IMG/VR virus record: IMGVR_UViG_3300008117_000018
Span: 47,419-111,418 of that record
Source: a virus
Length of the DNA stretch: 64,000 bases
Strand: one strand, 5' to 3'
Part shown: positions 9,956-62,997 of the stretch, in pieces
How the letters are laid out: every line of letters begins with the position of its first letter
Position numbering within the stretch: the stretch's first letter is position 1
The notes under the pieces: generated by a model
Seen by the model: only the letters and a program-made list of their open reading frames with translations
Told to the model about the DNA's origin: nothing
Database searches by the model: none
Made by a program: the position numbers and the translations under genes

Positions 9956-10330
9956 ATGCCAGTAAACTTTAAAGATTTCTACATAGGATATAAAGGTCAT
10001 CCAAGATACGAATCTTCTAAATTTATAGAAGATGATGTAATTAGAGTAATCGTTCAAAAATATGAAATGATAATTTTCACTAACAAAGGTGAGTTATTAG
10101 GTGATCCTAGTTTTGGTGCTGATTTACCGCTATTACTTCATGAGACAAGACTCTCAGAAGATAGTATACAAGGCGATATAAACGCTCAAATATTTGAATA
10201 TATACCTGAAATAAGTAATATACCCTATACTTTAGAGGTCAATATTTATGATGATCCAGAAAGACACCAAGAGTGGATGGAAATTCTTTTTCAGATTAGA
10301 GACTTAGAAGTATACGCAACAGTAATCTAA
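9956..10330 (+). CDS. baseplate wedge protein (gp25 family)
   Basis: IIFTNKGELLGDPSFGADLPLLLHE motif; 124 aa. Confidence 0.8.
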   Translation: MPVNFKDFYIGYKGHPRYESSKFIEDDVIRVIVQKYEMIIFTNKGELLGDPSFGADLPLLLHETRLSEDSIQGDINAQIFEYIPEISNIPYTLEVNIYDDPERHQEWMEILFQIRDLEVYATVI

Positions 10331-10779
10331 TCTACTCTATAACTATTTCTTTGCCAATATCTTTTACCATAACCGACAAATATTTCTTCACCGGAACGAA
10401 TATCTCTATCAGCAACTAAAACAACTTCATCATCATCATTCATTGTTATGATAGAATTATTTTTGAAATTTGAAGAGATACCCTCCGCATCATTTGCAAA
10501 TTTCGCAAAACAAAAAGTTTTCTTACAATCTAATGTTTCACCAGACGGCAACATCATAAAATAATCATCTTCTTTTGCATTTGCTCTTTTTGCGGCCTCT
10601 TCATTTGATATTACTTCACCCATAAATTTTGATATTACTTCACCACATTCTATATCTATAGATGTAAAGAGTCCATTTCCGGAATTTGGAATTTGAGAAG
10701 ACTGTACATATAAAAAATCTTCTTCTGGTAAATCTATTGAGTCGTAATCGAAATTTTCAAAAAATTTAAGATATTTCAT
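10327..10779 (-). CDS. SET-domain protein-lysine methyltransferase
   Basis: SQIPNSGNGLF..I..GE.I..F.G, AKFAND, ADRDIRSGEEIFVGYG..YW. Confidence 0.88.
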   Translation of the reverse strand: MKYLKFFENFDYDSIDLPEEDFLYVQSSQIPNSGNGLFTSIDIECGEVISKFMGEVISNEEAAKRANAKEDDYFMMLPSGETLDCKKTFCFAKFANDAEGISSNFKNNSIITMNDDDEVVLVADRDIRSGEEIFVGYGKRYWQRNSYRVD

Positions 10780-10792
10780 ATACACTTAGGCT

Positions 10793-11407
10793 TTATTTGA
10801 TAGGACAACTTGTGGCTGTCCAGATATATTTATAGTCTCTTTTTATTTTAACTCCTAAACTTTCAGCGGTTGTTACAACATCCTCCAAACACTCACCATC
10901 AGCACCACCAACTATTACTACCTCTCTTCCTTTAAGATCGGTAAGTAATTCATAAAGTTTTTTAGGACAATGAAACCAAACGTGATTGTTGTTGATAAAA
11001 GTAATTATTGTACCTTCTTTTGTTGGAAATATATCACCTTTTTTTAAAGACTTATTTTCTTCCCTTTTGCTAATGTCTTCATATACATTTTTATCTAATA
11101 TTTTCTTGTAAAAATCAGCATCAACATCGTAATTATATCTTTTTTCAATTAATTCTTTTTGATTAGGAAAATGGTACAAATCTTTGTGTATTGGAATTTC
11201 AGGTTCATCTTCATATAAATAATCTTTATCTACGTTTTTACCATCAGGATGATTATCCCAAATTTGATAAACATTATTAAAATTTTTACAATATTTTTTA
11301 AGTTCATTTAGATACATTTCAGAAAAAAACTTTCTGAATGATTTTTGAACATCAACTATTATTAGCGTATCTTCATTATAACTCTCAAAGGTTTTAAGAA
11401 ATCTCAT
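10793..11407 (-). CDS. isochorismatase/cysteine hydrolase-like protein
   Basis: LIIVDVQKSF motif and VVIVGGADGECL putative catalytic Cys motif. Confidence 0.7.
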   Translation of the reverse strand: MRFLKTFESYNEDTLIIVDVQKSFRKFFSEMYLNELKKYCKNFNNVYQIWDNHPDGKNVDKDYLYEDEPEIPIHKDLYHFPNQKELIEKRYNYDVDADFYKKILDKNVYEDISKREENKSLKKGDIFPTKEGTIITFINNNHVWFHCPKKLYELLTDLKGREVVIVGGADGECLEDVVTTAESLGVKIKRDYKYIWTATSCPIK

Positions 11408-11423
11408 AAACTATATATTAAAT

Positions 11424-11449
11424 AAAAAACCCATCATTTCTGATGGGTT
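11424..11449 (-). terminator. intrinsic terminator
   Basis: AACCCATCA-TTTC-TGATGGGTT with A-run (U-tail on minus strand). Confidence 0.7.
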
Positions 11450-11469
11450 ACTTAAATATTTTAATTAGA

Positions 11470-12141
11470 TTAAGCCGGTAGTTCTTCCTCACCCTCTTCC
11501 TCTTCTTGTGCTTGACCCTGTCCTTGTGCTTGACCCTGTCCTTGTGCTTGACCCTGTCCTTGTGCTTGACCCTGTCCTTGTGCTTGACCCTGTCCTTGTG
11601 CTTGAGGTTCTTCAAATTCACCTTCTTGAGCTTGAGCTTGACCTTGTGCTTGACCTTGTCCTTGTGCTTGACCTTGTGGCTGTGCTTGACCTTGTCCTTG
11701 TGCTTGACCTTGTCCTTGTGCTTGACCTTGTCCTTGTGCTTGACCTTGTGGTTGTGCTTGACTTTGTGGCTGTGCTTGACCTTGTGGCTGTGCTTGCATT
11801 TGAGCCTCACCTTCTACTTCAACTTGCGGTTGAGATTGAGATGATTGTCCCTGAGCTTGACCACCCATAAGAGCATTACCTGGAAGCTTTTCAACGTCCA
11901 AATTATTCATATTAATATATTTAACAATTTCCTCGGCGATATCAACATCCCCAAAAAATTGGCGTAAATTCTTACCTGTTGTATCTTTTACTTTTTTAAC
12001 ATAAGCATTGATTAATGACTGAGGAATGTCAATCATTGTCTTAACTTTATAGATATCGTTTACTTGTAAAACAGATTCTTTTATAATCTCTTCTCTGTTT
12101 TTTCTAATACGATAACTTTCAAATGTTCTAATGTGCTTCAT
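11470..12141 (-). CDS. hypothetical protein with Gln/Gly/Ala repeat tail
   Basis: Globular ~90-aa N-terminus, then (QGQAQG)n and an acidic end. Confidence 0.8.
   Translation of the reverse strand: MKHIRTFESYRIRKNREEIIKESVLQVNDIYKVKTMIDIPQSLINAYVKKVKDTTGKNLRQFFGDVDIAEEIVKYINMNNLDVEKLPGNALMGGQAQGQSSQSQPQVEVEGEAQMQAQPQGQAQPQSQAQPQGQAQGQGQAQGQGQAQGQGQAQPQGQAQGQGQAQGQAQAQEGEFEEPQAQGQGQAQGQGQAQGQGQAQGQGQAQGQGQAQEEEEGEEELPA
11506..11795 (-). repeat. 18-bp tandem coding repeat (QGQAQG)
   Basis: TGTGCTTGACC(C/T)TGTCCT-type units in two blocks. Confidence 0.9.
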
Positions 12142-12198
12142 TTTTTAGCTATATTTTTTATAAATTATATATTAAGTAAAAAAAATCATTTTTTTCAC

Positions 12199-12690
12199 TT
12201 ATTTTAGAATAGATAATAATATCAATCCTATTATTCCAGCAACGCCTATACCATAACCAACATTCTTTTTCACCTTTAATCTTGTTATCTCACCTTCCAA
12301 AGTCGTGACTTTAGTATTTAATTCAATTTTCTGATTCTCACACTCGACAGAGAGCCTATTTGCATTGTCTAATCTTTGTTGTAAATTTGAAATAAGTAAA
12401 TCTTTATCAACTAATTGTTCTTTTAACAACTTTACATCTAATTCAAGAAAAGAAATTGTCTTTTTTTGCTCATCTATAACTTTTATATAAGAATTACTAA
12501 GATTATCACAATCCACTATTGCCTTTTCTAAAAGTGATAATATTTCCATATTGTTGTCTAATTTTTGAGCCTGTTCTATAGTCATCACTACAACTTTATT
12601 ACCACTCGAATCAACTTCAATTTTAGGGTAGGTTTGTGAAAAACAAAGTAAGCTAGTAAATAAAACTAATATAGTAAGAACGTGTTTCAT
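12199..12690 (-). CDS. exported coiled-coil protein with C-terminal TM helix (spanin-like candidate)
   Basis: Signal peptide ..LLCFS/Q, long coiled coil, C-terminal hydrophobic helix. Confidence 0.55.
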   Translation of the reverse strand: MKHVLTILVLFTSLLCFSQTYPKIEVDSSGNKVVVMTIEQAQKLDNNMEILSLLEKAIVDCDNLSNSYIKVIDEQKKTISFLELDVKLLKEQLVDKDLLISNLQQRLDNANRLSVECENQKIELNTKVTTLEGEITRLKVKKNVGYGIGVAGIIGLILLSILK

Positions 12691-12694
12691 ATAT

Positions 12695-13111
12695 TCAATT
12701 ATTTTTTAATTTGTCTTTTAAAGAATTTATTAAGTCATCACCTTCTCTTTTTAAAGGATTATCTTTAAGTTTCTGTATTCTTTTTTTTGACTCTTCAAGT
12801 ATTTTTTTATTATCAGATAATTGATTGTTTGCAATTATCAAATTATTTTTTGCCACTCTTAAATCTTTTTCAATATTTTTTATTTTTTCATCCCTATTAG
12901 AGATTATTTTCTGTATAGAAATATAATCTTTTTCCAATTTTTTATTTACTATTTTCAAAGAGTCTCTAATCTTTTCTATTTCTTGAATCTTTCTATCAGA
13001 TTCTTTAATTTTCTTCTTATAATCACTACCTTGCATATACCACATTGTAGCAAAAATGATAGAACTAACAAGTAATGCTAAAGTTATTATTGAATTAACA
13101 TTTAACTTCAT
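12695..13111 (-). CDS. N-terminally anchored coiled-coil protein (i-spanin-like candidate)
   Basis: One N-terminal TM segment followed by a Lys-rich coiled coil. Confidence 0.55.
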   Translation of the reverse strand: MKLNVNSIITLALLVSSIIFATMWYMQGSDYKKKIKESDRKIQEIEKIRDSLKIVNKKLEKDYISIQKIISNRDEKIKNIEKDLRVAKNNLIIANNQLSDNKKILEESKKRIQKLKDNPLKREGDDLINSLKDKLKNN

Positions 13112-13156
13112 AAACTTTAATTTTTTTGATTATATATAATTATAGTTACCTTCAAT

Positions 13157-13187
13157 TTTGATTTAAAAAACAAAATTTGTATTTTTG
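13157..13187 (+). promoter_or_regulatory. Bacteroidota primary-sigma-type promoter (-33/-7)
   Basis: TTTG (13157-13160), 19-nt spacer, TATTTTTG (13180-13187) upstream of the HAD-clpS pair. Confidence 0.7.
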
Positions 13188-13213
13188 TATCAAATTATTT
13201 TAATAAATAAGAA

Positions 13214-13795
13214 ATGTCTAAAACTTTATACTCATTCGATTTTGACGATACTCTTTGTCATACTATGTTACCAGAAAATGGTGAAAAAATCTGGTTTGAA
13301 AAAACTGGAACAAAGTGGCCTTATAGAGGATGGTGGTCAAAACCAGAAACAGTAGACCCTGAAATATTTTTTACTCCAAAGAATGAATGGGTTTATTTAG
13401 AGTATTTAAAAGCCAAAAGAGATGAAGACTCTACAATTATTATGGCAACTGGTAGATTACAAATAGTTCCTAATATGAGAGAAAATATCATAAAAATCTT
13501 AAACCAACATAATTTATCTTTTGATGAAGTTTGGATTATAAATTCCACAGACGAACAACAAAGTGGAAATGGAAAAGATGGAATTTATTTAAATTGGGGC
13601 GGTGATACATTTATGTTTAAAACTACACTTTTTGAAAAACTAATATCTATTACTCAATGCGAACACTTTGTAATGTATGACGATAGACAAGAACACTTAG
13701 GTAGATTTGAAGAGTGGGCATCAACTCAAAATTGTAAAGTAACAATAGTAGACGTTGTAAATAAAAAATCAACAATTATAAACGAAAATATATAA
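13214..13795 (+). CDS. HAD-superfamily hydrolase (Swiss-army-knife RNA-repair HAD-like)
   Basis: FDFDDTL motif I, ATGR motif II, K, MYDDR motif IV; WWSKPET. Confidence 0.8.
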   Translation: MSKTLYSFDFDDTLCHTMLPENGEKIWFEKTGTKWPYRGWWSKPETVDPEIFFTPKNEWVYLEYLKAKRDEDSTIIMATGRLQIVPNMRENIIKILNQHNLSFDEVWIINSTDEQQSGNGKDGIYLNWGGDTFMFKTTLFEKLISITQCEHFVMYDDRQEHLGRFEEWASTQNCKVTIVDVVNKKSTIINENI

Positions 13796-13796
13796 G

Positions 13797-14087
13797 ATGA
13801 ATATGGCAACAATTACAAAAAAGAAAACATCAACAAAAGTTGAAGAATTATTATCTAAACCATATCTTTTGGTTTTACACAATGATGATTATAACACATT
13901 CGACCACGTAATAAATTGTCTGATGAAACACTGCGGTCATGAATTTGAACAAGCGAATCAGTGCGCACATATAGTTCATTTTAATGGTAAATGTGACGTC
14001 AAATATGGAGATTATGACACGATTTCAACTATGAAAGATAAATTGAAAAATGCGGGTCTTTCGGTAACAATGGAGGCTAATTCATAA
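13797..14087 (+). CDS. clpS: ATP-dependent Clp protease adaptor ClpS
   Basis: LVLHNDDYNTFDHVINCL...EQANQCAHIVHFNGKCDVKYG. Confidence 0.9.
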   Translation: MNMATITKKKTSTKVEELLSKPYLLVLHNDDYNTFDHVINCLMKHCGHEFEQANQCAHIVHFNGKCDVKYGDYDTISTMKDKLKNAGLSVTMEANS

Positions 14088-16226
14088 TTATTTTAATCCA
14101 AACCAATTTCCATTATTTCCAACACTTCCTTTAGAACGATTTAAAAATTGTCTTCTAACCTTAAGAACTTGACCATAGTCAACACCCTCGACATAGTCAA
14201 CGTTCTTTAAACAATCATTAATATAGTTAGTCATTGATTTATCCATGTGCCTTGACATCCAGTCCTCACACATTTCCTTGAACTCATTTTTACCAAAAAA
14301 AGATGTTGTGTTTACAATAGTCATAACTGTGTCATCATGACCGACATCGGCTGCATATTTTATATTACCAGCGTTTGTAGTATGTTTAACAAAAGTAGTA
14401 ATTTCTCTAATTGTATCTTCATTATTAATATAGAAAGATTTCGATGTCATCAAGTCTTGGTAATCTTTTACTAATAAATTTTTATTTTCTCCAACCTTTA
14501 ATCCTATTTTTTCTTCGTTAGAGTCTGCTCTGTGTTTATATCTTACAAATACAGATGAGCCATAATTATTATTACCATCAAAAACTTGTGGCATCTCGGC
14601 TAATAATGTATTACCATAATTATTTAATTCTAATACAACTTTACAATTTTCCGGATTCAAATATTCAAAAACTAGAAGGTATAATAACTCGGCTAATTGT
14701 TTTACAGAAACTAAATTACTTCTATATATTCCAACTTGTTCTAATCTAAAAAAATCAACTAAGGATTTATAAGAATTTTTTTGAGATTCTATTGTGTCTT
14801 TGGTTTTACTATTTAATTTAAAAATATTAATAACTGAATAATCTTGTCCCAGACCCTCTGAGATATCGACCGAGATTACAAATCTATACTCCTTTCTTCT
14901 TAGTGGAATATAAACGTCATCGTCGTCTATCCAGATTAAATCTTTATAACTAAATTTTATCTTTCTTTCAAACTCAGACAATTCTTCCCATTCATAATTT
15001 CTTTTATTATTAGTAAGATCATTAATTATAGCCTCATTTAATAATGATTTAGAAGCATTAATAAATCTAAGTCCATATTCCTGGTTAAAAGCATCCTCTC
15101 CACCAATATCCTTTATCGCCTCTTCTTTCCATGTAGTTATCTCAGCTAATGATAATAGAGGTATTTCATAATCTTTATCATTTTTCAACGTAAAAGTCTT
15201 AATTTCTTGATCTGAACAAGCATCATTATTATAAATGGATATAACATCTTTTTGTAAGTCAGTATTCCAATACATCTCTACTTTGGTGAGATGACCCCAT
15301 TTAGATTTAATAATATCAAAAACATCTTCTTTTTTCAAACCATTATCAAATAACTGATGATTATTTAATCTTACATAAGTTACAAATCTACCCGGCACTT
15401 GATACCAGTATACCCTCATTGGTTTATAGTTGTTTTTTAATGGATCACCCTGAGGTCTCTCAGCATCTGTAAGTAATTTATGAAACAAATTCATACCATT
15501 TGGAGTTGATGTAATTATAATTTTAGAATTTTGAACAGCGGCTGTTGTAGGAAATGCAGCGGTGTAATATGGCTCTATTATATTAGATGGTATATGGGCA
15601 AACTCATCTAAGTAAAGCACATCTATTGTAAAACCAATAGCAGGTGTTTTAGTTCTAGCAGATGTTTTGATTCGACAACCATTCTCAAATGTCAGCGATT
15701 TTTGATTCCAAGTTTTTATACCTGGTTTTAAAAAAAATGGTAGTAGTGAATAAATTGACTTTATCTTATCAACAATTTCAACAGCAGTATCACCTTTATT
15801 AGCAACTATCATTATGTTTTTATCGTTATCAAATAAAATTTTATGCAACATGAAAATTGCAGAAGATATTGTTTTACCAACCTGCCTTGATGCCATTAAT
15901 ATATTAAATCTATTATTAATAAAATTATCAAGTATCTCTTTTTGATAATCTCTTAAAAGTATATTACCTATACTACCATCTTCTCTTTTTACTTTACAAT
16001 ATTTCTCAACAAAATAATGCACATCTAATGCACATCTAACATATTCCTGTTGCTCATCTGGTGTCATTCTGAAAGTCACACCTGATCTTCTTAATCCAAC
16101 TTCACTTTTCAACCAAGGATTTTGATATCGCTTTACAACAATACCATCATTTATTTTATCTGTTGCCTCATCTACTAATTTAGTAGTAAATATCATTTGT
16201 TTTTCTTGAGCTTCATTAAAAGCCAT
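14088..16226 (-). CDS. terminase large subunit (T4 gp17-like)
   Basis: LRDYQ, ASRQVGKT, LDEFAHI, IITSTPNG, VDISEGLGQDYS, HDDTVM. Confidence 0.95.
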   Translation of the reverse strand: MAFNEAQEKQMIFTTKLVDEATDKINDGIVVKRYQNPWLKSEVGLRRSGVTFRMTPDEQQEYVRCALDVHYFVEKYCKVKREDGSIGNILLRDYQKEILDNFINNRFNILMASRQVGKTISSAIFMLHKILFDNDKNIMIVANKGDTAVEIVDKIKSIYSLLPFFLKPGIKTWNQKSLTFENGCRIKTSARTKTPAIGFTIDVLYLDEFAHIPSNIIEPYYTAAFPTTAAVQNSKIIITSTPNGMNLFHKLLTDAERPQGDPLKNNYKPMRVYWYQVPGRFVTYVRLNNHQLFDNGLKKEDVFDIIKSKWGHLTKVEMYWNTDLQKDVISIYNNDACSDQEIKTFTLKNDKDYEIPLLSLAEITTWKEEAIKDIGGEDAFNQEYGLRFINASKSLLNEAIINDLTNNKRNYEWEELSEFERKIKFSYKDLIWIDDDDVYIPLRRKEYRFVISVDISEGLGQDYSVINIFKLNSKTKDTIESQKNSYKSLVDFFRLEQVGIYRSNLVSVKQLAELLYLLVFEYLNPENCKVVLELNNYGNTLLAEMPQVFDGNNNYGSSVFVRYKHRADSNEEKIGLKVGENKNLLVKDYQDLMTSKSFYINNEDTIREITTFVKHTTNAGNIKYAADVGHDDTVMTIVNTTSFFGKNEFKEMCEDWMSRHMDKSMTNYINDCLKNVDYVEGVDYGQVLKVRRQFLNRSKGSVGNNGNWFGLK

Positions 16227-16270
16227 ACAGAGAAGTTATTTTTTATATATATTGCAAAAACCGAATCTCT

Positions 16271-18011: not shown

Positions 18012-18039
18012 AATGTATATATAAAAAAAATTAGTTACT

Positions 18040-18522: not shown

Positions 18523-18531
18523 AACAAATTA

Positions 18532-19389: not shown

Positions 19390-19459
19390 TATTTTATTGA
19401 AAATTTTTTAGAAATAGATGTTTTAGATTTAATATATACCTAAAAAATTACTTTTTAGA

Positions 19460-22743: not shown

Positions 22744-22802
22744 AAAAAATATCATTTTAAAAGTTTTATATATACTTTAAATTAAAAAATTAAAATAACA
22801 AT

Positions 22803-31084: not shown

Positions 31085-31729
31085 TTACTTTTTAAGAGTG
31101 ATTGTAATAGTAGCACTTTTATCACCATATCTATCTTCTGTTATTTCCTTTTCAACATTAAATTTTGAAAAATCTATACCTCTAAAAAGACCATTCCATT
31201 TTCTATCAGTATAAGAACTTACATATCCATTACAATTAACAGTGATTTTCAATTCTTCTTTATCCAATTTCTTAGTCATACCATTAACAAAGTCGCTTTT
31301 AGCAGCAAATGTTTTTTTAGTCATTTCATTATAAAGTTGTTGAACTAAAAACAAAGGTCCATCGACTTTAGATTTTTGTATAAAAGTAACTACTATATGA
31401 TGTCTCATATGTGGATTTATTGAAACTCTAGAGCTTTCTAAGCGATTTTTAAGAGCTATTAACTCATCTAAGAAATCCCAAAATTTATCATCAATAATTG
31501 TTTCACTGTATCCACCAGATGGTCCTAATTTAAAAGAGTTTCTAAATATTATATTAATAGATTTATATCCAGAAAATTCACCTTCGGTTATAATTCTTGG
31601 TTCCGAAAAAGAATATTCAATTCCTAGGTCAGCAATAGGAAGTAATAACTCATCTAAATCTTCTTTAGATAAATCTGTTATATCCTGAGATTCATTTAAA
31701 TGTTGTAAAAACTTATGTAAGTATTTCAT
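31085..31729 (-). CDS. hypothetical protein
   Basis: 214-aa ORF starting MKYLHKFLQHLNES. Confidence 0.7.
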   Translation of the reverse strand: MKYLHKFLQHLNESQDITDLSKEDLDELLLPIADLGIEYSFSEPRIITEGEFSGYKSINIIFRNSFKLGPSGGYSETIIDDKFWDFLDELIALKNRLESSRVSINPHMRHHIVVTFIQKSKVDGPLFLVQQLYNEMTKKTFAAKSDFVNGMTKKLDKEELKITVNCNGYVSSYTDRKWNGLFRGIDFSKFNVEKEITEDRYGDKSATITITLKK

Positions 31730-33200: not shown

Positions 33201-33222
33201 ACCAGTATATATTAAATTAGGA

Positions 33223-39614: not shown

Positions 39615-41477
39615 TTAAAAATACGTAGTTACTACAACAATCCCATCACCACCACGGCCACCAGCACCTGATACAACACCAACACCAACATTACTTGAAG
39701 CAGCACCACCACCACCTCCGCCTCCATATAGACCACCAGCGGATCCAGAACCGGCTGCAATATTACTAGAGCCTCCGCCTCCGCCTCCTTGACCAAACAA
39801 AGTTCCAGCAACTTGACTCAAAGCAAGACCACCACTTGCAGCAATAGGACCACCGTTTGTATCACCTGTAATAAATATTTGTCTTATGTTACCACCACTT
39901 CCACCAGATTGTAAAGCATTAGCCGAACTAATTGAGCCTCCGCCTCCGCCTCCGCTCGGTCCATATGGTATTTCAGCACCATCATCCGCAGTAGCAGCCG
40001 TATTCGATCTACCTCCATTAGCAGGGTTAGTTAGATAAGTATTACCAACACCTCCAATCGGTGGAAGTATACTTTTAGCAGAAGAGCCACCAAAACCGGC
40101 GCCTCCGCCTCCAGCAAAAGAAAAAGTTCCAAAAAGACTATTACCACCAGCCGAACCAGGTCTACCATTAGTTGAGTCAGTTGCTTGAGAACCACCTCCT
40201 GTACCAGATGTACCAACTGTAACCGAGACAGTAGATGGCAAATCTTGACCGATGAAATTAGTAACAGAAACACCACCACCTCCACCACCATCACCACCCA
40301 TTCTAGTAGAAGAAGCAGCACCTCTTCTACCAGAGCCACCTCCACCACCAGCACCAATAAGAATAACATTTACTAATTTAGCTCCATTTGGTTTAGTCCA
40401 AGTAGAATTTGAGGTATAAACTTGGACATTTGAAGCACTAACGTTTCCTTGACCCGACGTACCAGAAGTAGAACCTGACGTACCAGAAGTACCAGAGGTA
40501 GTTGCTTGACCTCTTGTTCCAGATGTACCTTCAGAAGCTTGAGTACCAGATGTACCAAATGTTCCACTCGTTCCACTTGTACCATTTGAACGACTTATTC
40601 CAGATGTACTAATACCACTTGTTCCAGATGTAGATGAGAGTGCAGAAAAGCCAACTATTGATGAACCACTTGTTCCAGCAGTAGAAACACCACCTGAACT
40701 TCCCGAGGTACCGGATGTTGAAACATCACCATTAGTACCAGATGTTCCTTTAGTACCGGAAGTAGCAACTTGACCCGTTGTTCCAGCAGTACCAGACTGA
40801 CCAGATGTACCATTAGTACCAGATGTACCCTGAGTACCAGATGTACCAGATTGACCAGATGTTCCAGCAGTTCCAGTTTGTACACCGGATGTACCGGATG
40901 TACCAGATTGAGTAGAAACAGCATTTGTAGTTATGTTACCTGATGTACCAGATGTCGTAAGAGAAGCATTTGCAGTTGAAATACCAAAATTACCAGATGT
41001 TCCGGATGTATTAGAGTTCCCGGATGTTCCGGATGTGTTAGATGTTCCTGATGTTCCTGATGTTGTTATTTGACCTCTTGTACCAGAGGTACTTGATAAA
41101 CCAGATGTTCCAGCAGTCGTTGATAAAGTATTATTAGTTGATATTCCAGAGAGACTACTGACTGAAGAAAAACCCTGTGTACCAGATGTTCCAGATGTTC
41201 CATTTGTACCAGATGTTCCAGATGTTCCATTTGTACCAGATGTTGCATTAAAAACAGCACCTGAGCTACCAGAAGTTGAATTCTGACCAGATTGACCAGA
41301 TTGACCATTTGTACCAGAAGTATTTGAAATACTACTATTTCCAGATGCACCGGATGACAAAGAATTTCCAGAAGTACCGCTGGTTTTAGAAGAACCATTT
41401 GTACCAGAAAGTCCATTTGTACCAGACGTTCCACTCTGTATTAAACCACTAACACTATTAATTTTAGATAACGACAT
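39615..41477 (-). CDS. Gly-Thr-Ser repeat fibre-like protein, paralog 1
   Basis: ~340 aa of SGT repeats, then [24 protein letters not shown] glycine-rich domain ending GIVVVTTYF. Confidence 0.85.
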
Positions 41478-41487
41478 AATTTATATA

Positions 41488-43362
41488 TTAAAATCTAGTA
41501 ATGACAACAACCACACCGTCACCACCATCACCACCACGACCCGAACTAAATCCGTTAGTAGAAGCACCTCCGCCTCCGCCACCACCTCCATATAGACCAC
41601 CATCACCTCCCCTGCCTCCAGGAGTAAGCGCGATATTACTTCCAGCACCACCACCAGCACCACCTCTTCCCAATAAAGAAGCATCTGAACCAGGTCCAGT
41701 TTGACCATTTACCCCAACAGCTGCACCAGCAGCAAATATTGTACTATTATCAACCGTCAATATTGACCCACCGTTTCCTCCAGTCCCGAATACATTAGTA
41801 GCAGAAATGTTACCACCACCTCCACCACCAGTCGGTTTATAAGGAGTATCCTCAGCAGCACCACCCGATGTTCCACCATCACCAGTATTACCTGAAGTTC
41901 CTGGATAATTAACATCACCACCAATACCACCGGTACTAAATGAAGCGGTTTTACCACCATCTCCACCTCGACCACCTCCCACAGTCAAATAGACATTAGC
42001 ACCAGTAATATAATCACCAAATATAGTATCGTCACCATTATTACCATCATTACCGTTTGTGTTTATAGTTGAAATTGCAGCACCACCACCACCACCAGCA
42101 CCCGGATTACAAAGCACACTAGATGGTAGTATTGAGGCATTAATAAGAACTCTAACATGTCCTCCTGAACCACCACCAGATCCACCGAATCTTGTTCTAC
42201 CAGAAGCATTCAAAGCACCAGAACCACCACCACCGCCACCACCTATACAAATGACCTCAACCATTTTAGCACCGCTTGGTTTAGTCCATGTAGCATTTAC
42301 AGCCGAATAGGTATTAATTTGTATAGAAACAGCACTGGTACCACTTGTACCAAAAGTACCCGATGTTCCCGAAAACCCACCAGAACCGGAAGTTCCAGAG
42401 GTTCCACCAGTTTTTGAGATACCAGAAGTTCCGGATGTTTGAGATGTTCCTGAAGAACCACTAAGAGTACCAAAACCAGAAGTTCCTGAAGTAGTACCAG
42501 ATGTACCGGAAGTAGATGATAAACCAGAAGTACCGGAAGTTCTGAATGCACTAGATGTACCCGAATTACCACTATTTCCTGTTGTTCCTGAAGTACCACT
42601 ATTACCATTAGTTCCAGATGTTCCAGAAGTCGATGATAAACCAATTGTACCTGATGTACCTCGTGTACCACTAGTACCAGAACCACTTGATACACCAGAA
42701 CCACCAGAAAATGAAGAGACACTTGATACCCCAGAACTTCCTGATGTACTTGAATTTCCAGATAAAGAAGAAGTTCCAGATGTACCAGAAGTTCTACTTT
42801 GACCAGAACTTCCTGATGTACCTGTAGTTCCTGAACTACCCGATGTTCCAGAAGTAGTCAATCCAGAGGTACCGGAGGTTGACGAATTTGCGGAGGTTCC
42901 TGATGTATTTGAAGTTCCAAAAGTTCCAGAAGTTGATGAGTTATTACTCAAACCAGAAGTTCCAGAAGTAGTATTCAAACCATTAGAAAAAGAATTACCG
43001 GACGTCCCTGATGTCGTATTGACACCGGATGTACCGGAGGTTGTATTAATACCTGATGTTCCAGAAGTATTTGAAGAATTACTTATGCCAGATGTACCAG
43101 ATGTACCAAATCCTCCAGATGTACCAGAAGTATTGTTATTTCCAGATGTACCAGAAGTATTGTTATTTCCAGATGTACCAGATGTTCTAGTTAAACCGGA
43201 TGTTCCAGCGGTTGAAGATAAACCAGATGTTCCTGAAGAACTATTATTACCAGAACTACCACTAGTGCCGTTGGTTCCTGATGTACCAGAACTACCAGAA
43301 GTCGATGATAAACCAGATGTACCGGATGTATTATAATTTACACTATCTATTTTATTTATCAT
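41488..43362 (-). CDS. Gly-Thr-Ser repeat fibre-like protein, paralog 2
   Basis: Same architecture; WTKPSGAKMVEVICIGGGGGGG...GVVVVITRF. Confidence 0.85.
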   Translation of the reverse strand: MINKIDSVNYNTSGTSGLSSTSGSSGTSGTNGTSGSSGNNSSSGTSGLSSTAGTSGLTRTSGTSGNNNTSGTSGNNNTSGTSGGFGTSGTSGISNSSNTSGTSGINTTSGTSGVNTTSGTSGNSFSNGLNTTSGTSGLSNNSSTSGTFGTSNTSGTSANSSTSGTSGLTTSGTSGSSGTTGTSGSSGQSRTSGTSGTSSLSGNSSTSGSSGVSSVSSFSGGSGVSSGSGTSGTRGTSGTIGLSSTSGTSGTNGNSGTSGTTGNSGNSGTSSAFRTSGTSGLSSTSGTSGTTSGTSGFGTLSGSSGTSQTSGTSGISKTGGTSGTSGSGGFSGTSGTFGTSGTSAVSIQINTYSAVNATWTKPSGAKMVEVICIGGGGGGGSGALNASGRTRFGGSGGGSGGHVRVLINASILPSSVLCNPGAGGGGGAAISTINTNGNDGNNGDDTIFGDYITGANVYLTVGGGRGGDGGKTASFSTGGIGGDVNYPGTSGNTGDGGTSGGAAEDTPYKPTGGGGGGNISATNVFGTGGNGGSILTVDNSTIFAAGAAVGVNGQTGPGSDASLLGRGGAGGGAGSNIALTPGGRGGDGGLYGGGGGGGGASTNGFSSGRGGDGGDGVVVVITRF

Positions 43363-43373
43363 AACTATATATA

Positions 43374-45284
43374 TTAAGTAAAATAAGTTGTAACAACAAC
43401 AATTCCATTCGCACCAAAACCACCGTTTCCAAACTTATCACCACGAGGTATGTTATCGCCATTAAGACCAGCACCACCGCCTCCACCGCCTGCACCATAA
43501 AGAGCACCATTAGCACCAATACCGGATCTAGCAGCTCCTCCACCTCCTCCACAACCAATATCAGAAAAAGAATCACCCTCATTACCATCAGTTAATGATG
43601 GGTCAGTACTAGCAATTCCAGGATTACCACCTAAACCGTTGGTATATTGAACTGTACCACCATCTCCCCCGTCGAAATTAGTATTACTAGCGTTTATACT
43701 ACCACCACTACCTCCACCAGTTGGTGCTCTGAATGTGAGAGCACCAGCAACACCAATACCACCAGCACTATTTCCACCAGAACCTCCACGTTCAATATTA
43801 CCATAACCACCTGAATTGTTAGAAGTCGGAATACTAGCAGATGAACCACCTCCACCACCTCCACCACCAAAAGCAATTAGGTTACTACCAAATCCAGAAC
43901 CTAGTGCTGAAGTACCAAATATCGAATCAGTACCCGCGGCACCATCACTTCCATCTTGATTATTGGCAGTCACTACTCCTCTACTACCACCCTGACCAAC
44001 CTGAACCGTCTCTGAGTTTTGTAAATCAGAAGCCCTGAAAATAGCTCGTGAAAAACCTCCACCACCTCCACCATTACCACCCCATCGAGCAGTACTAGTA
44101 GCTGACCTTCTACCAGCACCTCCTCCTCCGCCACCACCAATACAAATCACTTCAACCTTATCTGCATTTGCAGGCTTTGACCAACTAAAAATTGTTGTAA
44201 GTGGACTAGCAATAACCGTGTAAACCTGAACATCAATAACATTCAGTGTACCGGATGTTCCAGATGTTCTTGATAAACCAGAAGGAGCAATAGCTCCTTG
44301 ACTAGTTGATATACCAGAAGTTCCACTTGTCGTAGCATTAGGAAAAGAAGATTGAAAACCAGAAAAATTTGGATTATTACCGGTAGTTCCTGAAGTACCT
44401 TGTGTACCAGATGTACCTACAGCTCTGCTAAGACCACCCGTACCAGAGCTACCAGAGGTACCATTGGTTGAATTTAATCCAGCAGTACCACTAGTAGAAA
44501 AATTGGTTGATATTCCTGTGTTACCACTACTACCAGATGTTGTGGAAAATCTGTTACCACCACTCTCTCCACTCGTACCAGAAGTTCTAGATAGACCGTT
44601 AGTAGTCAGACCTGATGTTCCATTTGTTCCTGAAACCGAAACAAAACTACTTGAGGTTCCAGACGATCCAGCGGTACTCTGTGGCGTTTGAGCAGATATA
44701 CCTGAATTTCCAAATGTACCAGATGAACCAGAGGTCAATGAAACCCTGCTTGAACCAGAATTTGATGAATTTGATGAATTTCCAGACGTACCAGAAGTTT
44801 TATTTGAACCAGATGTTCCACTTGTACCATTCGTACCTGATGTAGAAGAATTTCCAGCGGTTCCTGTAGTACCATTTGCTGAAGACTGACCAGAAGTACC
44901 GGAAGTTGAATTTGTACCAGAAGTGGATGATTGGCTTGACAAACCAGACGTACCACTCGTACCATTAGTTCCAGAAGTAGAAGAATTTCCAGCGGTTCCT
45001 GTAGTACCATTACTTCTTGAATTACCAGCCGTGCCTGATGTAGAAGAGGTACCAGCTGTTGAATTTATACTTGAAATCCCACTTGAACCTGAAGTACCAG
45101 AACTACCAGAACTACCGGATGTTGTAGATAAACCACTAGTACCTGTTGTACCAGAACTACCAGAAGTACCAGAAGTACCAGAAGTAGAACTTACTAAGCT
45201 ATTAGTAGATTGTCCAGATGTACCAGATTGACCATTTGTACCGGACGTACCAGTATCTATAACAATACCATTTATTTTCTGCAT
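43374..45284 (-). CDS. Gly-Thr-Ser repeat fibre-like protein, paralog 3
   Basis: Same architecture; WSKPANADKVEVICIGGGGGGG...GIVVVTTYF. Confidence 0.85.
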   Translation of the reverse strand: MQKINGIVIDTGTSGTNGQSGTSGQSTNSLVSSTSGTSGTSGSSGTTGTSGLSTTSGSSGSSGTSGSSGISSINSTAGTSSTSGTAGNSRSNGTTGTAGNSSTSGTNGTSGTSGLSSQSSTSGTNSTSGTSGQSSANGTTGTAGNSSTSGTNGTSGTSGSNKTSGTSGNSSNSSNSGSSRVSLTSGSSGTFGNSGISAQTPQSTAGSSGTSSSFVSVSGTNGTSGLTTNGLSRTSGTSGESGGNRFSTTSGSSGNTGISTNFSTSGTAGLNSTNGTSGSSGTGGLSRAVGTSGTQGTSGTTGNNPNFSGFQSSFPNATTSGTSGISTSQGAIAPSGLSRTSGTSGTLNVIDVQVYTVIASPLTTIFSWSKPANADKVEVICIGGGGGGGAGRRSATSTARWGGNGGGGGGFSRAIFRASDLQNSETVQVGQGGSRGVVTANNQDGSDGAAGTDSIFGTSALGSGFGSNLIAFGGGGGGGGSSASIPTSNNSGGYGNIERGGSGGNSAGGIGVAGALTFRAPTGGGSGGSINASNTNFDGGDGGTVQYTNGLGGNPGIASTDPSLTDGNEGDSFSDIGCGGGGGAARSGIGANGALYGAGGGGGGAGLNGDNIPRGDKFGNGGFGANGIVVVTTYFT

Positions 45285-56539: not shown

Positions 56540-56567
56540 TTTTTATATTTATTTTTTCATTTTATTT

Positions 56568-59192: not shown

Positions 59193-59248
59193 ATTTTATT
59201 TTATTTTTTTAATTTTCTTATATATTATATTTTTAATCTCTAAAATTT

Positions 59249-60829
59249 CTAATTTATATAATAAAGTGAAATTCTCCATGTTGAATAAAGATCGGTTCCA
59301 ACGAAATTACCATTCCAATAAAGAGCATCACCTGATTGTACATTTATTTTTGATGTGACTCCACCGTCGTCACTGAAATAACAAGGAACACTTGTTGTAG
59401 TTCCATAACCTACTTCAAATTCTTGACCATTAACAAATACTCCTACATAACCACCAGGTAAAGGTGTCTGTGAAATAGTTAAACCAGTAAATTGCCCATC
59501 ACCATTTGTTGTAAAAGCCATTTGAAAGTTCTTATCACTAGAAGTAAGTGTACCAGAAGTTTGAGAAGGATCCAACCAATTAAATTTTCCTGCATTATCT
59601 ACAGATAAAATGTATCCAGCAGTAGCACCACCATTTGTTCCTGTATCTAATTTTGAAGCAGTTAATGAACCATCCTTAACTATTGCAGACACAGATAATC
59701 CCATAATTGTGTTTTCTTGTGTAAAGTCTATAGTTTCAGAATCATTAAATGAAGTAGTCAACCCTGTATTTAGTGTAATAAAAGCTAAACTTCCGCTATT
59801 TGAAATAGTACCTCCTGATAAGTATAATGAACCATTTACTACAATGATTTGACCATAATTGACTAATGTTCCAGCAATTGTTAAATCAGAATATACCCAA
59901 TATTGATAATAAGGTGGAACAACTATGTAATCGGTAGGTTCAATGTAATATTTTACATTAAATAAATCTTCGTTTACAAAAGGTCTATTCAATTGAAAAT
60001 CTACACCATCATAAACAACAGTATAAACAACATTAGCTTGTATATCCGATGGTAAGAGATCCACTACGCCAGAAGGAGTTGGTTTTTTTATGTAAGCAGA
60101 GCCCAAAGAATTTATATTTAAAGATGCGGTTGTTCCAACATTTTGAGCTGAAAATTTGACTAAAAAAACTGAATCTTGATTATAATTACTGATTGGAGGT
60201 GTTGTAGTTGCAATATAATCAACACCATTACTTGTCGAAGCAGCTAAATTTCTTACTTGACCAAGTTTTTCTTTTTGCCAAGCACCAGTGGGAAAATTAC
60301 CTTCATATTTATAAATTGAGTTATCTTCATCATCTACTCTCACAGACATTCCATCTTTAGGAACAGTCAAAGTCCAAGTTGAAGAGTTCCATTCTGCTAC
60401 TTGCGAAGAAGTAAACGAACTCCATTGAGCACCCGACAATACTATAGATGAATCAATTCCTAATAAATATCTATCTCCAATTGAAGGAGACCCAGGCTGA
60501 GAAAAAGCAACAGAAATAACGGAATCAATCCATTCGGTTCCCCCACCACCACCAGATCCTCCAGAACCACTGAATTCTTTCCAATTGGAGTTATCCATGA
60601 TACTAGTGGAAACAAAATTATATGTTAATTGATATGTTTTATTATCACTTTGAACATAACACATCATACCCCATTCTCTTCTTTCAAAAATAATTGCATT
60701 CCGTGTTGTTATATCTATAGCAGTGTGTAGACCACCACGAATTTCAGTAGCAAATGCGGATGCTATTGGATCTAACGAGTCGTTAGGTCTTATCGCTGAT
60801 GATATTAATGTTCCTACGTTTTTAGCCAT
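59249..60829 (-). CDS. virion structural protein
   Basis: 526 aa; C-terminal VFVNGQ...CYFS...LYWNG...G.DL domain shared with 53774..56539. Confidence 0.75.
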   Translation of the reverse strand: MAKNVGTLISSAIRPNDSLDPIASAFATEIRGGLHTAIDITTRNAIIFERREWGMMCYVQSDNKTYQLTYNFVSTSIMDNSNWKEFSGSGGSGGGGGTEWIDSVISVAFSQPGSPSIGDRYLLGIDSSIVLSGAQWSSFTSSQVAEWNSSTWTLTVPKDGMSVRVDDEDNSIYKYEGNFPTGAWQKEKLGQVRNLAASTSNGVDYIATTTPPISNYNQDSVFLVKFSAQNVGTTASLNINSLGSAYIKKPTPSGVVDLLPSDIQANVVYTVVYDGVDFQLNRPFVNEDLFNVKYYIEPTDYIVVPPYYQYWVYSDLTIAGTLVNYGQIIVVNGSLYLSGGTISNSGSLAFITLNTGLTTSFNDSETIDFTQENTIMGLSVSAIVKDGSLTASKLDTGTNGGATAGYILSVDNAGKFNWLDPSQTSGTLTSSDKNFQMAFTTNGDGQFTGLTISQTPLPGGYVGVFVNGQEFEVGYGTTTSVPCYFSDDGGVTSKINVQSGDALYWNGNFVGTDLYSTWRISLYYIN

Positions 60830-60857
60830 TTAACATTTATTTTTCTTTTTTATATAT

Positions 60858-61868
60858 TTAACTAACTATAACATCTAAAGCTGAGTTTTGAACCGTATTT
60901 GTTATCCAAACCTCAAAATTAGTAGTAAAACCATATTGATTTACAAATGGCTGAGCAGTTCTAATTCTTGTAAAAGCATTGCTTGAAAAACCACCTACTG
61001 TAAAACTTGGGGCAGTAGCACCACTAACCGAAGAAGGCCAAGCAAATACTAAATAATTACCACCTCCTCCAATTTGACTATAACTTTTATTTTTAGTGGT
61101 AGATAATTGACTACTTAAATTCTGTATTACTGTATCAGTAACAATAGATGAAACCATAGATGCTGAACCAGGATTATAAAATAAATTTGGATTACCAATA
61201 GAAGATAAATTCACATTGCCCCAGAAAATTCTATTCATCCAAGTAAAAGTAGCAGAACTATTGTAAGTTCCAGTACCATCATTAACAGAGATAGGAAAAG
61301 TCTGTACATAGGATGCTCCCGGTGAGACAGGATAAAAACCAGTTGTAGTCTGACTACCAGCAACACTTGAAGACCAAGGTGGTCCACCAGTAGAATAAGG
61401 AACACTATTAACAGTTATAGAACTAATATCATTAGTTTTTTTGGTTACACTCCAATTCAAAGTGATAGAAGAAAGAGGTACAGGATAGCCATACTCAGCC
61501 TGATTACTTCCAGAAACACTAATACTAACAACTGGACTCTGATAAGGATAAAGTAATTTATCAAACATCTGAGAAATAGTTAAGTTAGAAAAAGTTGAAC
61601 CTGCTGGAATACCACCAATCGTAACTGGTGTAGGAGTAGAATTTGAATAAAACAGAGATACAGAAGCAGATGCTGCAGTCGCAACCACAATAGATAAATC
61701 ATCAACTTTCTTCCACAAAGAGTAAACAGGGCTACGTATATCAATAGGATCAATTAAATTACTATTATTATCTAATAGATTCTTCAATAAATCATCTACG
61801 TTATCATACAAATCTGTAGCTGTAACCGCTTCAAAACCAGTAACAGAATATGAGCCAACTAATGCCAT
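60858..61868 (-). CDS. virion structural protein
   Basis: GGIPAG...ISQMFDKLLYP module shared with 47851..49308; start placed at MALVG. Confidence 0.7.
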   Translation of the reverse strand: MALVGSYSVTGFEAVTATDLYDNVDDLLKNLLDNNSNLIDPIDIRSPVYSLWKKVDDLSIVVATAASASVSLFYSNSTPTPVTIGGIPAGSTFSNLTISQMFDKLLYPYQSPVVSISVSGSNQAEYGYPVPLSSITLNWSVTKKTNDISSITVNSVPYSTGGPPWSSSVAGSQTTTGFYPVSPGASYVQTFPISVNDGTGTYNSSATFTWMNRIFWGNVNLSSIGNPNLFYNPGSASMVSSIVTDTVIQNLSSQLSTTKNKSYSQIGGGGNYLVFAWPSSVSGATAPSFTVGGFSSNAFTRIRTAQPFVNQYGFTTNFEVWITNTVQNSALDVIVS

Positions 61869-61988
61869 TAAAAAAATTAATTTTAAGTATATATAAAATA
61901 CCAAAAACTAAATAAAAGAAAACTTATGGAAAAATTTAAATTTTGAGAAACCAAAAATCAATTAAGAATGTATCATGATGTTTCATGT

Positions 61989-62699
61989 TTAGCATACCCA
62001 AATAAAGTGGTCAGATTTCTCGGATTCAAAAGCCCAATCCTCACCTAAGCAATCTGCGATAATCTCTTTTAACTTAGCGACAGATAATATTTCTTCTAAC
62101 TTATCGTTAAATTTATCCTCCGGCACAATATTTTTTAAATTAATTTTGATATTAGGTAAAATTTCTATCTCCTTATCAGAAAATTCACCATATAAAAAAG
62201 ACAAAATATTAGTTTTAATAAGGTCTACCTCCTCCTTTGAATAGATTACAACATTCCAGTCGTCATTTTCCCAATCGCTTATTTTAAAAGTGTGTTTATC
62301 CGAATCAACCACTTCTATATCACCTAAATTCAAATCGAAATAATCCGCTAAAATTTTTTCTTGTGACAAAGTAGATTTTTCAACTCCTTTATATAGACAC
62401 TCTCTTAAAGAACTCATTTTGAAATCAACCGATTCAAAATAGTTGAAAGATTCAAAAGTCACAACACCATCTGATTCCATAGAAACCCTGTCATTAATAA
62501 TATCATTAAGGACTACATTTGCACCAGACACGTTTTCTAAGTTATTTCTTTTTAAAAAACGATTAAATCTATCAGAACCTGGCCTTAAATAACTTTTTAA
62601 ATTCTTTGGTCTGATTTTCCACTTATCAATATAATCATCAACCAACAAATTAATTTGTTGGTAGTATCTATTAGCATCTTCTCTATTATTAATTGACAT
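61989..62699 (-). CDS. hypothetical protein
   Basis: 236-aa ORF. Confidence 0.7.
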   Translation of the reverse strand: MSINNREDANRYYQQINLLVDDYIDKWKIRPKNLKSYLRPGSDRFNRFLKRNNLENVSGANVVLNDIINDRVSMESDGVVTFESFNYFESVDFKMSSLRECLYKGVEKSTLSQEKILADYFDLNLGDIEVVDSDKHTFKISDWENDDWNVVIYSKEEVDLIKTNILSFLYGEFSDKEIEILPNIKINLKNIVPEDKFNDKLEEILSVAKLKEIIADCLGEDWAFESEKSDHFIWVC

Positions 62700-62997
62700 T
62701 TTTTTTATTTAAATTATATAGGTTTATAAAAGTAGATTCTTCTCTTTCTCTATCTTGTCTTAAATCTTCCTTCTCATCATCATCTAATCTTTCACCAACT
62801 GCAGAATAATATTCATCTTCGGATAATTCTTCAATTTCTTCAGAATCACAAAATTTACAAATACTTTCATCTGTGTTAAAAGATTTAAACAGTGCATTAC
62901 AACCATCACAATGATAATAATTGTTTAAAAAATTTTTCGATGTTGACGGTAAAGTCTGACTAAAATCAAAAGTTTCAAAAGTTTTTACATACTTCAT
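62689..62997 (-). CDS. zinc-ribbon protein (FmdB-like)
   Basis: YHCDGC...CKFCDS; start at MKYVKTFETF. Confidence 0.65.
   Translation of the reverse strand: MKYVKTFETFDFSQTLPSTSKNFLNNYYHCDGCNALFKSFNTDESICKFCDSEEIEELSEDEYYSAVGERLDDDEKEDLRQDREREESTFINLYNLNKKNVN

Follow-up and report, generated by a model that had tools for sequence, protein, structure and literature searches.

Proteins of otherwise unrelated families encoded by a group of megaphages begin with a shared short peptide. We read this N-terminus as a T4-type capsid-targeting sequence that would dock its carriers onto the scaffolding core of the prohead, and assign this reading a probability of roughly 60%. Since about a dozen unrelated proteins carry what appears to be a diverged T4 head-loading tag, the phage is likely to package an exceptionally large enzyme repertoire and to inject it.

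The window, a stretch of 64,000 nucleotides, belongs to the 111-kb record IMGVR_UViG_3300008117_000018, a megaphage fragment that is syntenic with LR745206.1. The megaphage clade is uncultured and has genomes of 630–735 kb. Matches to the radical-SAM family PF04055 were absent from the 111-kb record and numbered one in each close relative, set against 64–77 scattered tag carriers, so we saw no linkage of the tag to such an enzyme. Open reading frames came from a simple ATG/longest-ORF caller, with a few starts shifted to the internal Met that opens the motif, and tag classes were counted with hand-made expressions. Literature searches yielded no paper that describes the tag or links the capsid-targeting sequence to huge phages.

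A shared N-terminus and its carriers

An earlier note on this DNA had named eight genes sharing an N-terminal peptide, and all eight N-termini are present at these genes. Three tag variants were found: V1 (MK[YH]LKxFE[SN]F), V2 (MK[YH]LKxYK[IL]FES) and V3 (MIKK[FY]xxFIxE). The strict consensus was defined as M[KR]x[LIVF][KRNHT]x[FY]xx[FYL]; it fits five of the eight N-termini (those of the 150-, 204-, 223-, 184- and 102-aa proteins), and the other three (909-, 214- and 254-aa proteins) are degenerate. V1 is the commonest variant in the window. The eight carriers, one promoter motif and two structural genes are located as follows.

695..2416 (−): T4-type portal protein, untagged; phrog_213 portal, E 9e-58; late-type motif at 2442–2450
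10327..10779 (−): SET-domain protein, 150 aa, V1 tag (tag codons 10750–10779), 17.1 bits leave-one-out; Pfam SET, E 1.2e-12, residues 34–138
10793..11407 (−): 204-aa protein, V1 tag (tag codons 11378–11407), 18.2 bits
11412..11420 (−): late-type promoter motif T[AT]ATATATA, 4 nt upstream of the ATG of the 204-aa gene
11470..12141 (−): 223-aa protein, V1 tag (tag codons 12112–12141), 21.8 bits
19460..22189 (+): 909-aa protein, degenerate tag, just 2.7 bits
22189..22743 (+): 184-aa protein, V2 tag, 8.9 bits
22803..26786 (+): tail sheath, 1327 aa, untagged; late-type motif at 22766–22774
31085..31729 (−): 214-aa protein, degenerate V2-like tag, 2.8 bits
32436..33200 (−): 254-aa protein, tag variant with the aromatic pair at residues 6 and 9, 5.8 bits
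62689..62997 (−): 102-aa Cys-rich protein, V1 tag, 16.4 bits; orthologues found

Using a leave-one-out matrix with a threshold of more than 6 bits, 12 of the 109 protein N-termini in the 111-kb record were recovered, versus none of the 509 internal Met sites and none of the 214 N-termini of decoy ORFs; scoring all positions gave 14 hits among 32,501. When three related genomes were pooled, the motif matched 120 times at the N-terminus versus six times internally. Tag carriers amount to 64 proteins in LR745206.1 and 77 in LR756502.1 (7–8%). With a genomic G+C content of 30.6%, such a peptide might arise as a chance product of an AT-rich proteome, that is, one rich in Lys, Phe, Tyr, Ile and Asn. 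However, both the controls above and the equally AT-rich phages PTm1 (Tenacibaculum) and MaF61 (Flavobacterium), which have none, speak against this explanation; we rejected it, and its probability is practically nil. Strict V1 and V3 DNA patterns were likewise absent from PTm1, MaF61 and Lak-A1. The earlier note had staked its claim on enrichment above the AT-rich background, which these counts bear out.

The tag is portable. Trimming the first 14 residues from the 120 carriers left 97 BLAST clusters, so about 97 unrelated families carry it, and orthologues exchange variants: in one pair of 83.5% identity, one member has V3 and its counterpart V1. Pfam domains among the carriers include SET, NUDIX, NFACT-R and peptidase domains, which begin 14–34 residues in. 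For the three degenerate window carriers, the LR745206.1 orthologues keep their N-termini, with the rest of the proteins 28–58% identical. The 'portable tag' of the earlier note is thus supported. An alternative would be that the carriers form one large, fast-diverging paralogous family whose start was inherited, and one subset does have a further motif in common: about 20 residues past the tag comes an acidic helix that ends in D-x-G-[FL]. This subset is the largest BLAST cluster, with eight members. Given 97 clusters among 120 carriers, with mutually unrelated SET, NUDIX, NFACT-R and peptidase domains, we rejected a single family for most carriers and consider it very unlikely as a general explanation.

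The cargo labels proposed earlier fared unevenly. The SET domain stood (Pfam E 1e-12); the orthologue of this 150-aa protein in LR756502.1 is also tagged. In the window, the SET gene is the third in a same-strand string with late-type motifs at the head. Weaker is the nucleotidyltransferase label of the 254-aa protein, which matches a Pfam MTPAP-like palm domain at E 0.005, below the Pfam cut-off; a late-type motif (33206–33214) lies 5 nt upstream of its gene and the orthologue keeps the N-terminus. The 'cysteine hydrolase' (204 aa) was not confirmed: neither Pfam nor Foldseek against the PDB gave a match, and the sole fold lead is isochorismatase(-like) (Atlas 0.86). With an AF2 model of low quality (pLDDT 62) and an empty Foldseek search, the label remains a lead. 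The conserved body of this protein starts at about residue 14, and the tag is kept in 120 of 120 homologues among the matches listed (78–93% identical).

Among the remaining carriers, the 223-aa protein has tagged orthologues in both megaphages, a late-type motif 24 nt upstream of its gene (12166–12174) and, as sole PHROG match, a weak one to phrog_7964. The gene of the 909-aa protein, positioned just ahead of the tail sheath gene, has a late-type motif 21 nt upstream (19430–19438); the protein had no match in Pfam or PHROG, and its LR745206.1 orthologue keeps the N-terminus at 28% overall identity. The stop of the 909-aa gene overlaps the start of the 184-aa gene, whose tag is retained across a three-genome orthologue cluster at an overall identity of 39%. 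The 214-aa protein has a strictly tagged orthologue in LR745206.1 and belongs to a fast-evolving family whose members have in common a second acidic helix about 20 residues past the tag. For the 102-aa protein we take 62997 as the true start, because a late-type motif (63003–63011) stands 5 nt upstream. An 824-aa tagged protein had no Pfam or PHROG match and no usable Atlas match, and searches of Pfam, PHROG and Atlas confirmed no ADP-ribosyltransferase among the carriers.

Correspondence with the T4 capsid-targeting sequence

The T4 tag quoted in the earlier note, MKTYQEFIAE, is correct: the T4 record encodes it twice, and MKTFKEFIKE once. In the T4 tag, targeting depends on residues 4 and 7 (Tyr, Phe) and processing on residues 8 and 10 (Ile, Glu), with gp21 cleaving after L/I-x-E (PMC9026906). 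A 90-aa megaphage protein (genome positions 15322–15594), whose gene adjoins a gp24-like vertex gene, has the N-terminus MIKKFKEFILEE, to be compared with MKTFKEFIKE of T4 IPI. From 117 of the 120 homologues of this protein among the matches listed, with 69 distinct N-termini between them, we built a V3 matrix; the alignment relied on an anchor further downstream, and all input was megaphage sequence, none of it from T4. Applied to 274 T4 N-termini, the matrix ranked IPI (18.0 bits), IPIII and IPII (10.2 bits) as the top three; the next N-terminus scored 0.6 bits and the best of 46,323 internal windows 8.9 bits. At a threshold of at least 8 bits it matched 19 N-termini in LR745206.1, 19 in LR756502.1 and 29 in LR756501.1, where 0.2–0.4 are expected by chance, and no N-termini in the AT-rich phages PTm1 and MaF61. 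Judged by its sequence, V3 is the T4 capsid-targeting sequence displaced by one residue, complete with aromatic pair and I-x-E processing site. The two are in register.

All variants have an aromatic pair three residues apart, as a sequence pattern ([FY]5 and F8 in V3, F7 and [FY]10 in V1, Y7 and F10 in V2). An [LI]-x-E ending at residues 8–14 is found in 84% of V3, 82% of V2 and 34% of V1 N-termini; the corresponding shares are 14% for N-termini lacking a tag and 7% for internal windows. Of the eight carriers in the window, five either belong to V1 or have no early site of this kind. Since V1 mostly lacks L/I-x-E, cleavage after Glu, which the earlier note had assumed, may fail for this variant. 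V1 and V2 are connected to V3 indirectly: the variants occupy the same position, replace one another between orthologues and are associated with the promoter. In its AF2 model, the 90-aa protein has a tag helix at residues 5–11, followed by low-confidence residues 12–40 (block pLDDT 47–53) and, from about residue 41, a small domain modelled with confidence (80–89). For the 204-aa protein, residues 1–11 were modelled at pLDDT below 50 and devoid of secondary structure, the first ten-residue block having a mean of 31.

Head genes, late-type promoter and competing explanations

As claimed before, recognisable structural genes go untagged: the portal, capsid, protease, sheath, baseplate and fibre genes have no tag. 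The capsid protein matches PF07068 (E 6e-28). The head maturation protease was assigned from PHROG (phrog_207, E 6e-30) and weak Pfam (S77, PF03420) matches, and phmmer with the protease domain against PDB sequences gave no match. By tblastn, the tail sheath is 69% identical to LR745206.1 and about 30% identical to sheath genes annotated in phages of Tenacibaculum and Flavobacterium; a megablast search of phage records with the tail region gave no match. A 696-aa protein fuses a T4 gp21-type prohead protease, its domain taken as residues 1–230, to about 10–11 subsequent repeats of 14 residues, which presumably serve as scaffold. Their consensus, NIAYSEYIAENLDK, is conserved in four megaphages; its core, an aromatic pair plus [LI]-A-E, is like the tag core. 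Two points weaken this parallel: the resemblance was noticed after the fact, and the repeat is the same whether or not a clade has V1/V2. The gp21-family protease, the gp23-type capsid and the repeat region are all encoded in one genome.

The earlier note had also placed the carriers behind a late motif or in its operons, and this is true of all eight in the window: five lie 4–24 nt after T[AT]ATATATA, and the other three immediately follow a motif-led gene of the same strand. The motif occurs within 40 nt upstream of 45–52% of tagged genes versus 13% of untagged ones (Fisher p 2e-9 and 3e-14); in the record alone and under the strict definition, the association is not significant (3 of 12 tagged versus 20 of 97). 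T[AT]ATATATA also precedes the portal, sheath and fibre genes, and we infer its late timing solely from the genes downstream of it.

The promoter spacing bears on a further explanation, that a nucleic-acid or translation signal of late, near-leaderless mRNAs is conserved and the peptide is a by-product. In many carriers the motif stands just 4–6 nt ahead of the ATG, which would put the first codons at the transcript's 5′ end. However, synonymous codons at the motif positions are used as they are genome-wide, so the constraint acts on the peptide rather than the DNA, and amino-acid substitutions within the motif are conservative (Y/H, L/I/V, K/R, F/Y). About half of the carriers (65 of 120) have no late-type motif within 40 nt, and 151 of 191 short-spacing genes are untagged, three fibre genes included. 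A DNA- or RNA-level signal was rejected on codon use and on this poor overlap with the promoter, and we give it hardly any credence. Nor do we put much faith in a degradation or timing signal (an N-degron or adaptor-recognised peptide) that would make late proteins short-lived: the models show the tag exposed and with little order, as such a signal might be, but the T4 match, the scaffold repeat and the clustering at head loci would go unexplained, and we know of no precedent for the tag sequence as a degron, which makes this reading highly improbable. More has to be said for a general docking helix that serves another partner, be it a modifying enzyme, a chaperone or the tail/baseplate, with the T4 likeness arising from convergence of amphipathic helices. 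V1 and V2 bear no more than a loose likeness to the T4 tag (Met-Lys, aromatic pair, acidic residue), and two carriers lie directly ahead of the sheath gene. V3, by contrast, is in register with the T4 tag including the processing site and finds the T4 internal proteins blind, orthologues exchange variants, and five tagged genes come directly after the capsid gene. On balance, we hold a docking helix for another partner to be unlikely.

Proposed packaging and known systems

Under the capsid-targeting reading we infer scaffold docking, tag cleavage, virion residence and injection. The tag would be a short amphipathic peptide whose aromatic pair binds the scaffolding core of the assembling prohead, a core that may be built from the 696-aa protease–repeat fusion. 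Tagged proteins would be synthesised late and co-assemble with the scaffold repeats, and the capsid shell would close around them. The protease would then cut both the repeats of the scaffold and the tags at [LI]-x-E, behind the Glu, which fits V2 and V3; V1, usually without this site, would perhaps be loaded and stay untrimmed. Cargo would remain in the head and exit with the DNA at the next infection. Some 64–77 different cargo proteins per genome far exceed the T4 precedent, which counts against this reading, as do the dispersal of many carriers in non-structural regions and the lack of a nearby late-type motif in about half of them.

More tentatively, and with some doubt on our part, the tag may be one copy of the scaffold's own 14-residue repeat, so that cargo would co-polymerise with the protease–scaffold fusion and be freed by the very cuts that dismantle the scaffold. 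The variants would then be cargo classes with different fates, V2 and V3 being trimmed and free, V1 loaded and uncut. If so, the injected proteome, with at least 60 different proteins, would be larger than any other proposed for a phage and could be read directly from sequence.

If the tag works as it does in T4, the injected protein set of these phages could be listed from sequence alone. Dozens of enzymes would likely be active in the first seconds of infection, among them a SET methyltransferase, a NUDIX hydrolase, an NFACT-R RNA-binding domain and a peptidase, giving a catalogue of candidate host-takeover and counter-defence factors. It would also point to an ancient origin of the T4 capsid-targeting system, which the largest known phages would share. 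The scaffold repeat is a testable candidate for the tag receptor, and the new tag variants might be of use for protein delivery via engineered phage heads.

Like the gp21-processed capsid-targeting sequence of T4 IPI, IPII and IPIII, the megaphage tag occupies about ten N-terminal residues on otherwise unrelated proteins and consists of Met and basic residues, an aromatic pair three apart and then I-x-E. The megaphage has homologous gp20-, gp21- and gp23-type head genes, and its putative scaffold is rich in [LI]-A-E sites, as is T4 gp22. Unlike T4 with its three carriers, megaphages have 64–77 per genome, add the clade-specific V1 and V2 (V1 mostly without a cut site), fuse the protease to a repetitive scaffold and appear to tag cargo with recognisable enzyme domains.

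Dozens of head-internal proteins are also cut after Glu by a diverged gp21 homologue and delivered into the host in phiKZ-like phages (phiKZ, 201phi2-1, SPN3US; PMC9026906). Their propeptides, however, are long and do not share a short N-terminal tag, and cleavage takes place at S/A/G-x-E, whereas the megaphage tags are short and shared, and the residue three before Glu is a conserved I or L. T4 Alt, a packaged ADP-ribosyltransferase that is synthesised late, enters the head, undergoes trimming by gp21 and is then injected, provides a model for tagged megaphage enzymes such as the SET and NUDIX proteins. Alt itself has its own propeptides at both ends, not an IP-type tag (PMC9026906). Encapsulin cargo-loading peptides are likewise short and portable and bring unrelated enzymes into an HK97-fold shell, but these peptides are C-terminal, bind the shell protein instead of a scaffold, stay uncleaved and are non-viral.

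Origin of the record and enrichment of the tag

The virus record is linear (111,418 bp, G+C 30.6%; the window spans its bases 47419–111418) and encodes a 1327-aa tail sheath with 69% identity to that of LR745206.1 (635 kb) and 62% to that of LR756502.1 (642 kb), both uncultured megaphages; identity to the sheaths of jumbo phages infecting Tenacibaculum and Flavobacterium is about 30%. 80 of the 109 called proteins matched LR745206.1 (BLASTP E up to 1e-5), in an order collinear with its 145–230 kb region. Judged from these collinear matches and the sheath identity, the record is a piece of a megaphage genome. According to a published note (PMC9723777), which does not mention N-terminal tags, LR745206 and LR756502 are two of the largest megaphages; their sources were a subsurface sample from Japan and a lake in France.

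An earlier note had quoted eight window proteins that start with a shared peptide of about ten residues, and all eight N-termini were present. Using a position matrix refined from the strict expression M[KR]x[LIVF][KRNHT]x[FY]xx[FYL] and scored leave-one-out (cut-off >6 bits), we found 12 of the 109 N-termini above the cut-off versus none of 509 internal Met sites, which places the motif above the AT-rich background. Of 214 out-of-frame decoy ORFs, none had an N-terminus that passed, and 14 of 32,501 positions did so in total. Five of the eight quoted carriers were clear members; the 254-aa protein was borderline (5.8 bits) and the 909-aa and 214-aa proteins were weak (2.7 and 2.8 bits). The N-termini of these three are kept in their LR745206.1 orthologues despite bodies diverged to 28–58% identity.

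The strict expression matched 46 N-termini in LR745206.1 and 64 in LR756502.1 (1 and 5 internal sites, respectively). Strict expression and matrix combined gave 12/109 tagged proteins in the record, 64/936 in LR745206.1 and 77/967 in LR756502.1. Without their first 14 residues, 120 carriers from the three genomes formed 97 BLAST clusters, with SET, NUDIX, NFACT-R and peptidase domains among them. Synonymous codon use did not differ between conserved tag positions and the rest of the genes. Among IMG/VR contigs, the exact DNA pattern occurred on at least 120 stretches, many from contigs >200 kb. The shared N-terminal peptide itself is confirmed.

Tag variants and their match to T4

Three variants were distinguished, and the aromatic pair three residues apart is kept in all of them.

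Variants and share of N-termini with [LI]-x-E ending at residues 8–14 (in V2 the position of this site is not fixed by the search expression)
V1, MK[YH]LKxFE[SN]F: 34%
V2, MK[YH]LKxYK[IL]FES: 82%
V3, M(I)IKK[FY]xxFIxE: 84%
Untagged N-termini: 14%
Internal windows: 7%

A 90-aa protein adjoining the gp24-like vertex gene starts with MIKKFKEFILEE, which is kept in all 120 homologues listed. From 117 of these (69 distinct N-termini) we derived a V3 matrix; the proteins were selected for similarity over their full length, with a downstream G-[TS]-E anchor to align them, so the matrix is free of T4 input. In the T4 record, two of the internal head proteins (IPII, IPIII) start with MKTYQEFIAE and one (IPI) with MKTFKEFIKE, and these were the top three among 274 T4 N-termini (IPI 18.0 bits, IPIII and IPII 10.2 bits). 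The fourth N-terminus reached 0.6 bits, and the best of 46,323 internal windows 8.9 bits. This fourth-ranked ORF (95 aa, NC_000866 73591–73878, minus strand) starts with MKTFKEF, without an I-x-E site.

N-termini scoring at least 8 bits (chance expectation 0.05–0.43 per genome) numbered 2 in this record, 19 each in LR745206.1 and LR756502.1, 29 in the more distant LR756501.1 (735 kb), 3 in T4 and none in PTm1 or MaF61. Searches of LR756501.1 for V1 and V2 found none at all, which makes V3 look ancestral and suggests that the other two arose in the clade holding this record. Variants can be swapped between orthologues, and an 83.5%-identical pair from two genomes has V3 on one member and V1 on the other. 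In this record the NUDIX protein carries V3 and its best LR745206.1 BLAST match starts V1-like, at only 33% identity over about half of the protein, so that this match may be a paralogue.

In T4, residues 4 and 7 (Tyr, Phe) serve targeting and residues 8 and 10 (Ile, Glu) processing; gp21 cleaves after L/I-x-E, and Asp at position 10 stops processing with targeting unaffected (PMC9026906). Since only 34% of V1 N-termini hold the site, V1 carriers may be loaded without being trimmed, a behaviour for which the T4 Asp variant is a precedent.

Structure predictions give weak indications that the tag lies outside the carrier fold. In the 90-aa protein, AF2 (model pLDDT 70) places a helix at residues 5–11 and, after a low-confidence stretch at residues 12–40 (block pLDDT 47–53), a small domain predicted with confidence from about residue 41 onwards (block pLDDT 80–89). 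For the 204-aa protein, whose model is poorer, residues 1–11 are without structure (pLDDT <50, first ten-residue block mean 31). A fast-evolving tagged family (window 31085–31729, record 37613–38011, many genes in LR745206.1 and LR756502.1) has a second element about 20 residues past the tag, an acidic helix ending D-x-G-[FL] and then a strand, which may be a common adaptor module. Separately, two adjacent small untagged proteins (window 12199–13111, minus strand) begin with a hydrophobic stretch resembling a signal peptide, and one of them has a lipobox-like Cys.

Head genes and a late-type promoter motif

Head-related genes
Record 40426–40809, outside the window: tagged stand-alone NFACT-R RNA-binding domain, directly after the capsid gene (PF05670, E 1.5e-17)
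Record 40885–42609: gp23-type capsid protein (PF07068, E 6e-28)
Record 42694–44784, minus strand, outside the window: 696-aa prohead protease fused to some eleven repeats of 14 residues, plus a long acidic tail
Window 695–2416: T4-type portal (phrog_213, E 9e-58)

Residues 1–230 of the 696-aa protein match 'head maturation protease' (phrog_207, E 6e-30; PF03420 weakly). Beyond this domain follow about 10–11 repeat copies with the consensus NIAYSEYIAENLDK, kept in all four megaphages (this one, LR745206.1, LR756502.1 and LR756501.1), and the whole looks like a gp21–gp22 fusion. The core of the repeat (Y-S-E-Y-I-A-E) comes close to that of the T4 tag (Y-Q-E-F-I-A-E), a resemblance that was spotted post hoc and is suggestive rather than a test. 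T4 gp22 also has several [LI]-A-E sites, and the known cut site of T4 gp23 likewise consists of two aromatic residues separated by two others and followed by L-x-E. In the capsid protein of this phage, I-N-E occupies residues 43–45, directly ahead of a segment resembling, by eye and not by computed alignment, the mature T4 gp23 start. A second gp23-like match (PF07068, E 9e-11) lies in a 66-aa ORF abutting a 446-aa ORF (record 13746–15286, minus strand, outside the window); the two may be a vertex-protein gene, frameshift-split or read through by recoding.

Portal, sheath, vertex, baseplate and fibre genes have the late-type motif T[AT]ATATATA ahead of them, 4–6 nt or 19–29 nt from the ATG. 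These two sharply distinct spacings recur across the whole record and its relatives, the shorter implying nearly leaderless mRNAs. Among tagged genes of the two complete relatives, 45% and 52% have the motif within 40 nt upstream; for untagged genes the figure is 13% (Fisher p 2e-9 and 3e-14). The strict test on this record alone was not significant. All eight carriers in the window are nevertheless associated with the motif, five having it themselves and three lying directly downstream of a motif gene on the same strand. Five tagged genes, including those for the NFACT-R and peptidase proteins, directly follow the capsid gene.

A candidate gp55-like late sigma factor is the 121-aa protein at window 5916–6281 (minus strand; 89% identity between megaphages; weak sigma-70 region 2 match, E 0.019). 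Three tandem paralogues of about 620–636 aa, rich in Gly, Thr and Ser (window 39615–45284, minus strand), are probably fibres; each has its own late-type motif 4–5 nt ahead of the ATG, and the region has a G+C of 40–43% versus about 29% elsewhere.

A probable capsid-loading tag

A T4-type capsid-loading tag, expanded and diversified in the megaphage lineage, is the best explanation, with a probability of roughly 60%. Tagged proteins would dock, be cleaved, reside in the virion and be injected. That the tag instead docks onto some other partner seems rather unlikely to us, and several further rival explanations are minor. The kind of system is already known from T4; new, as far as the literature was searched, are its scale, the new variants, the putative protease–scaffold fusion with tag-like repeats and its presence in the largest known phages.
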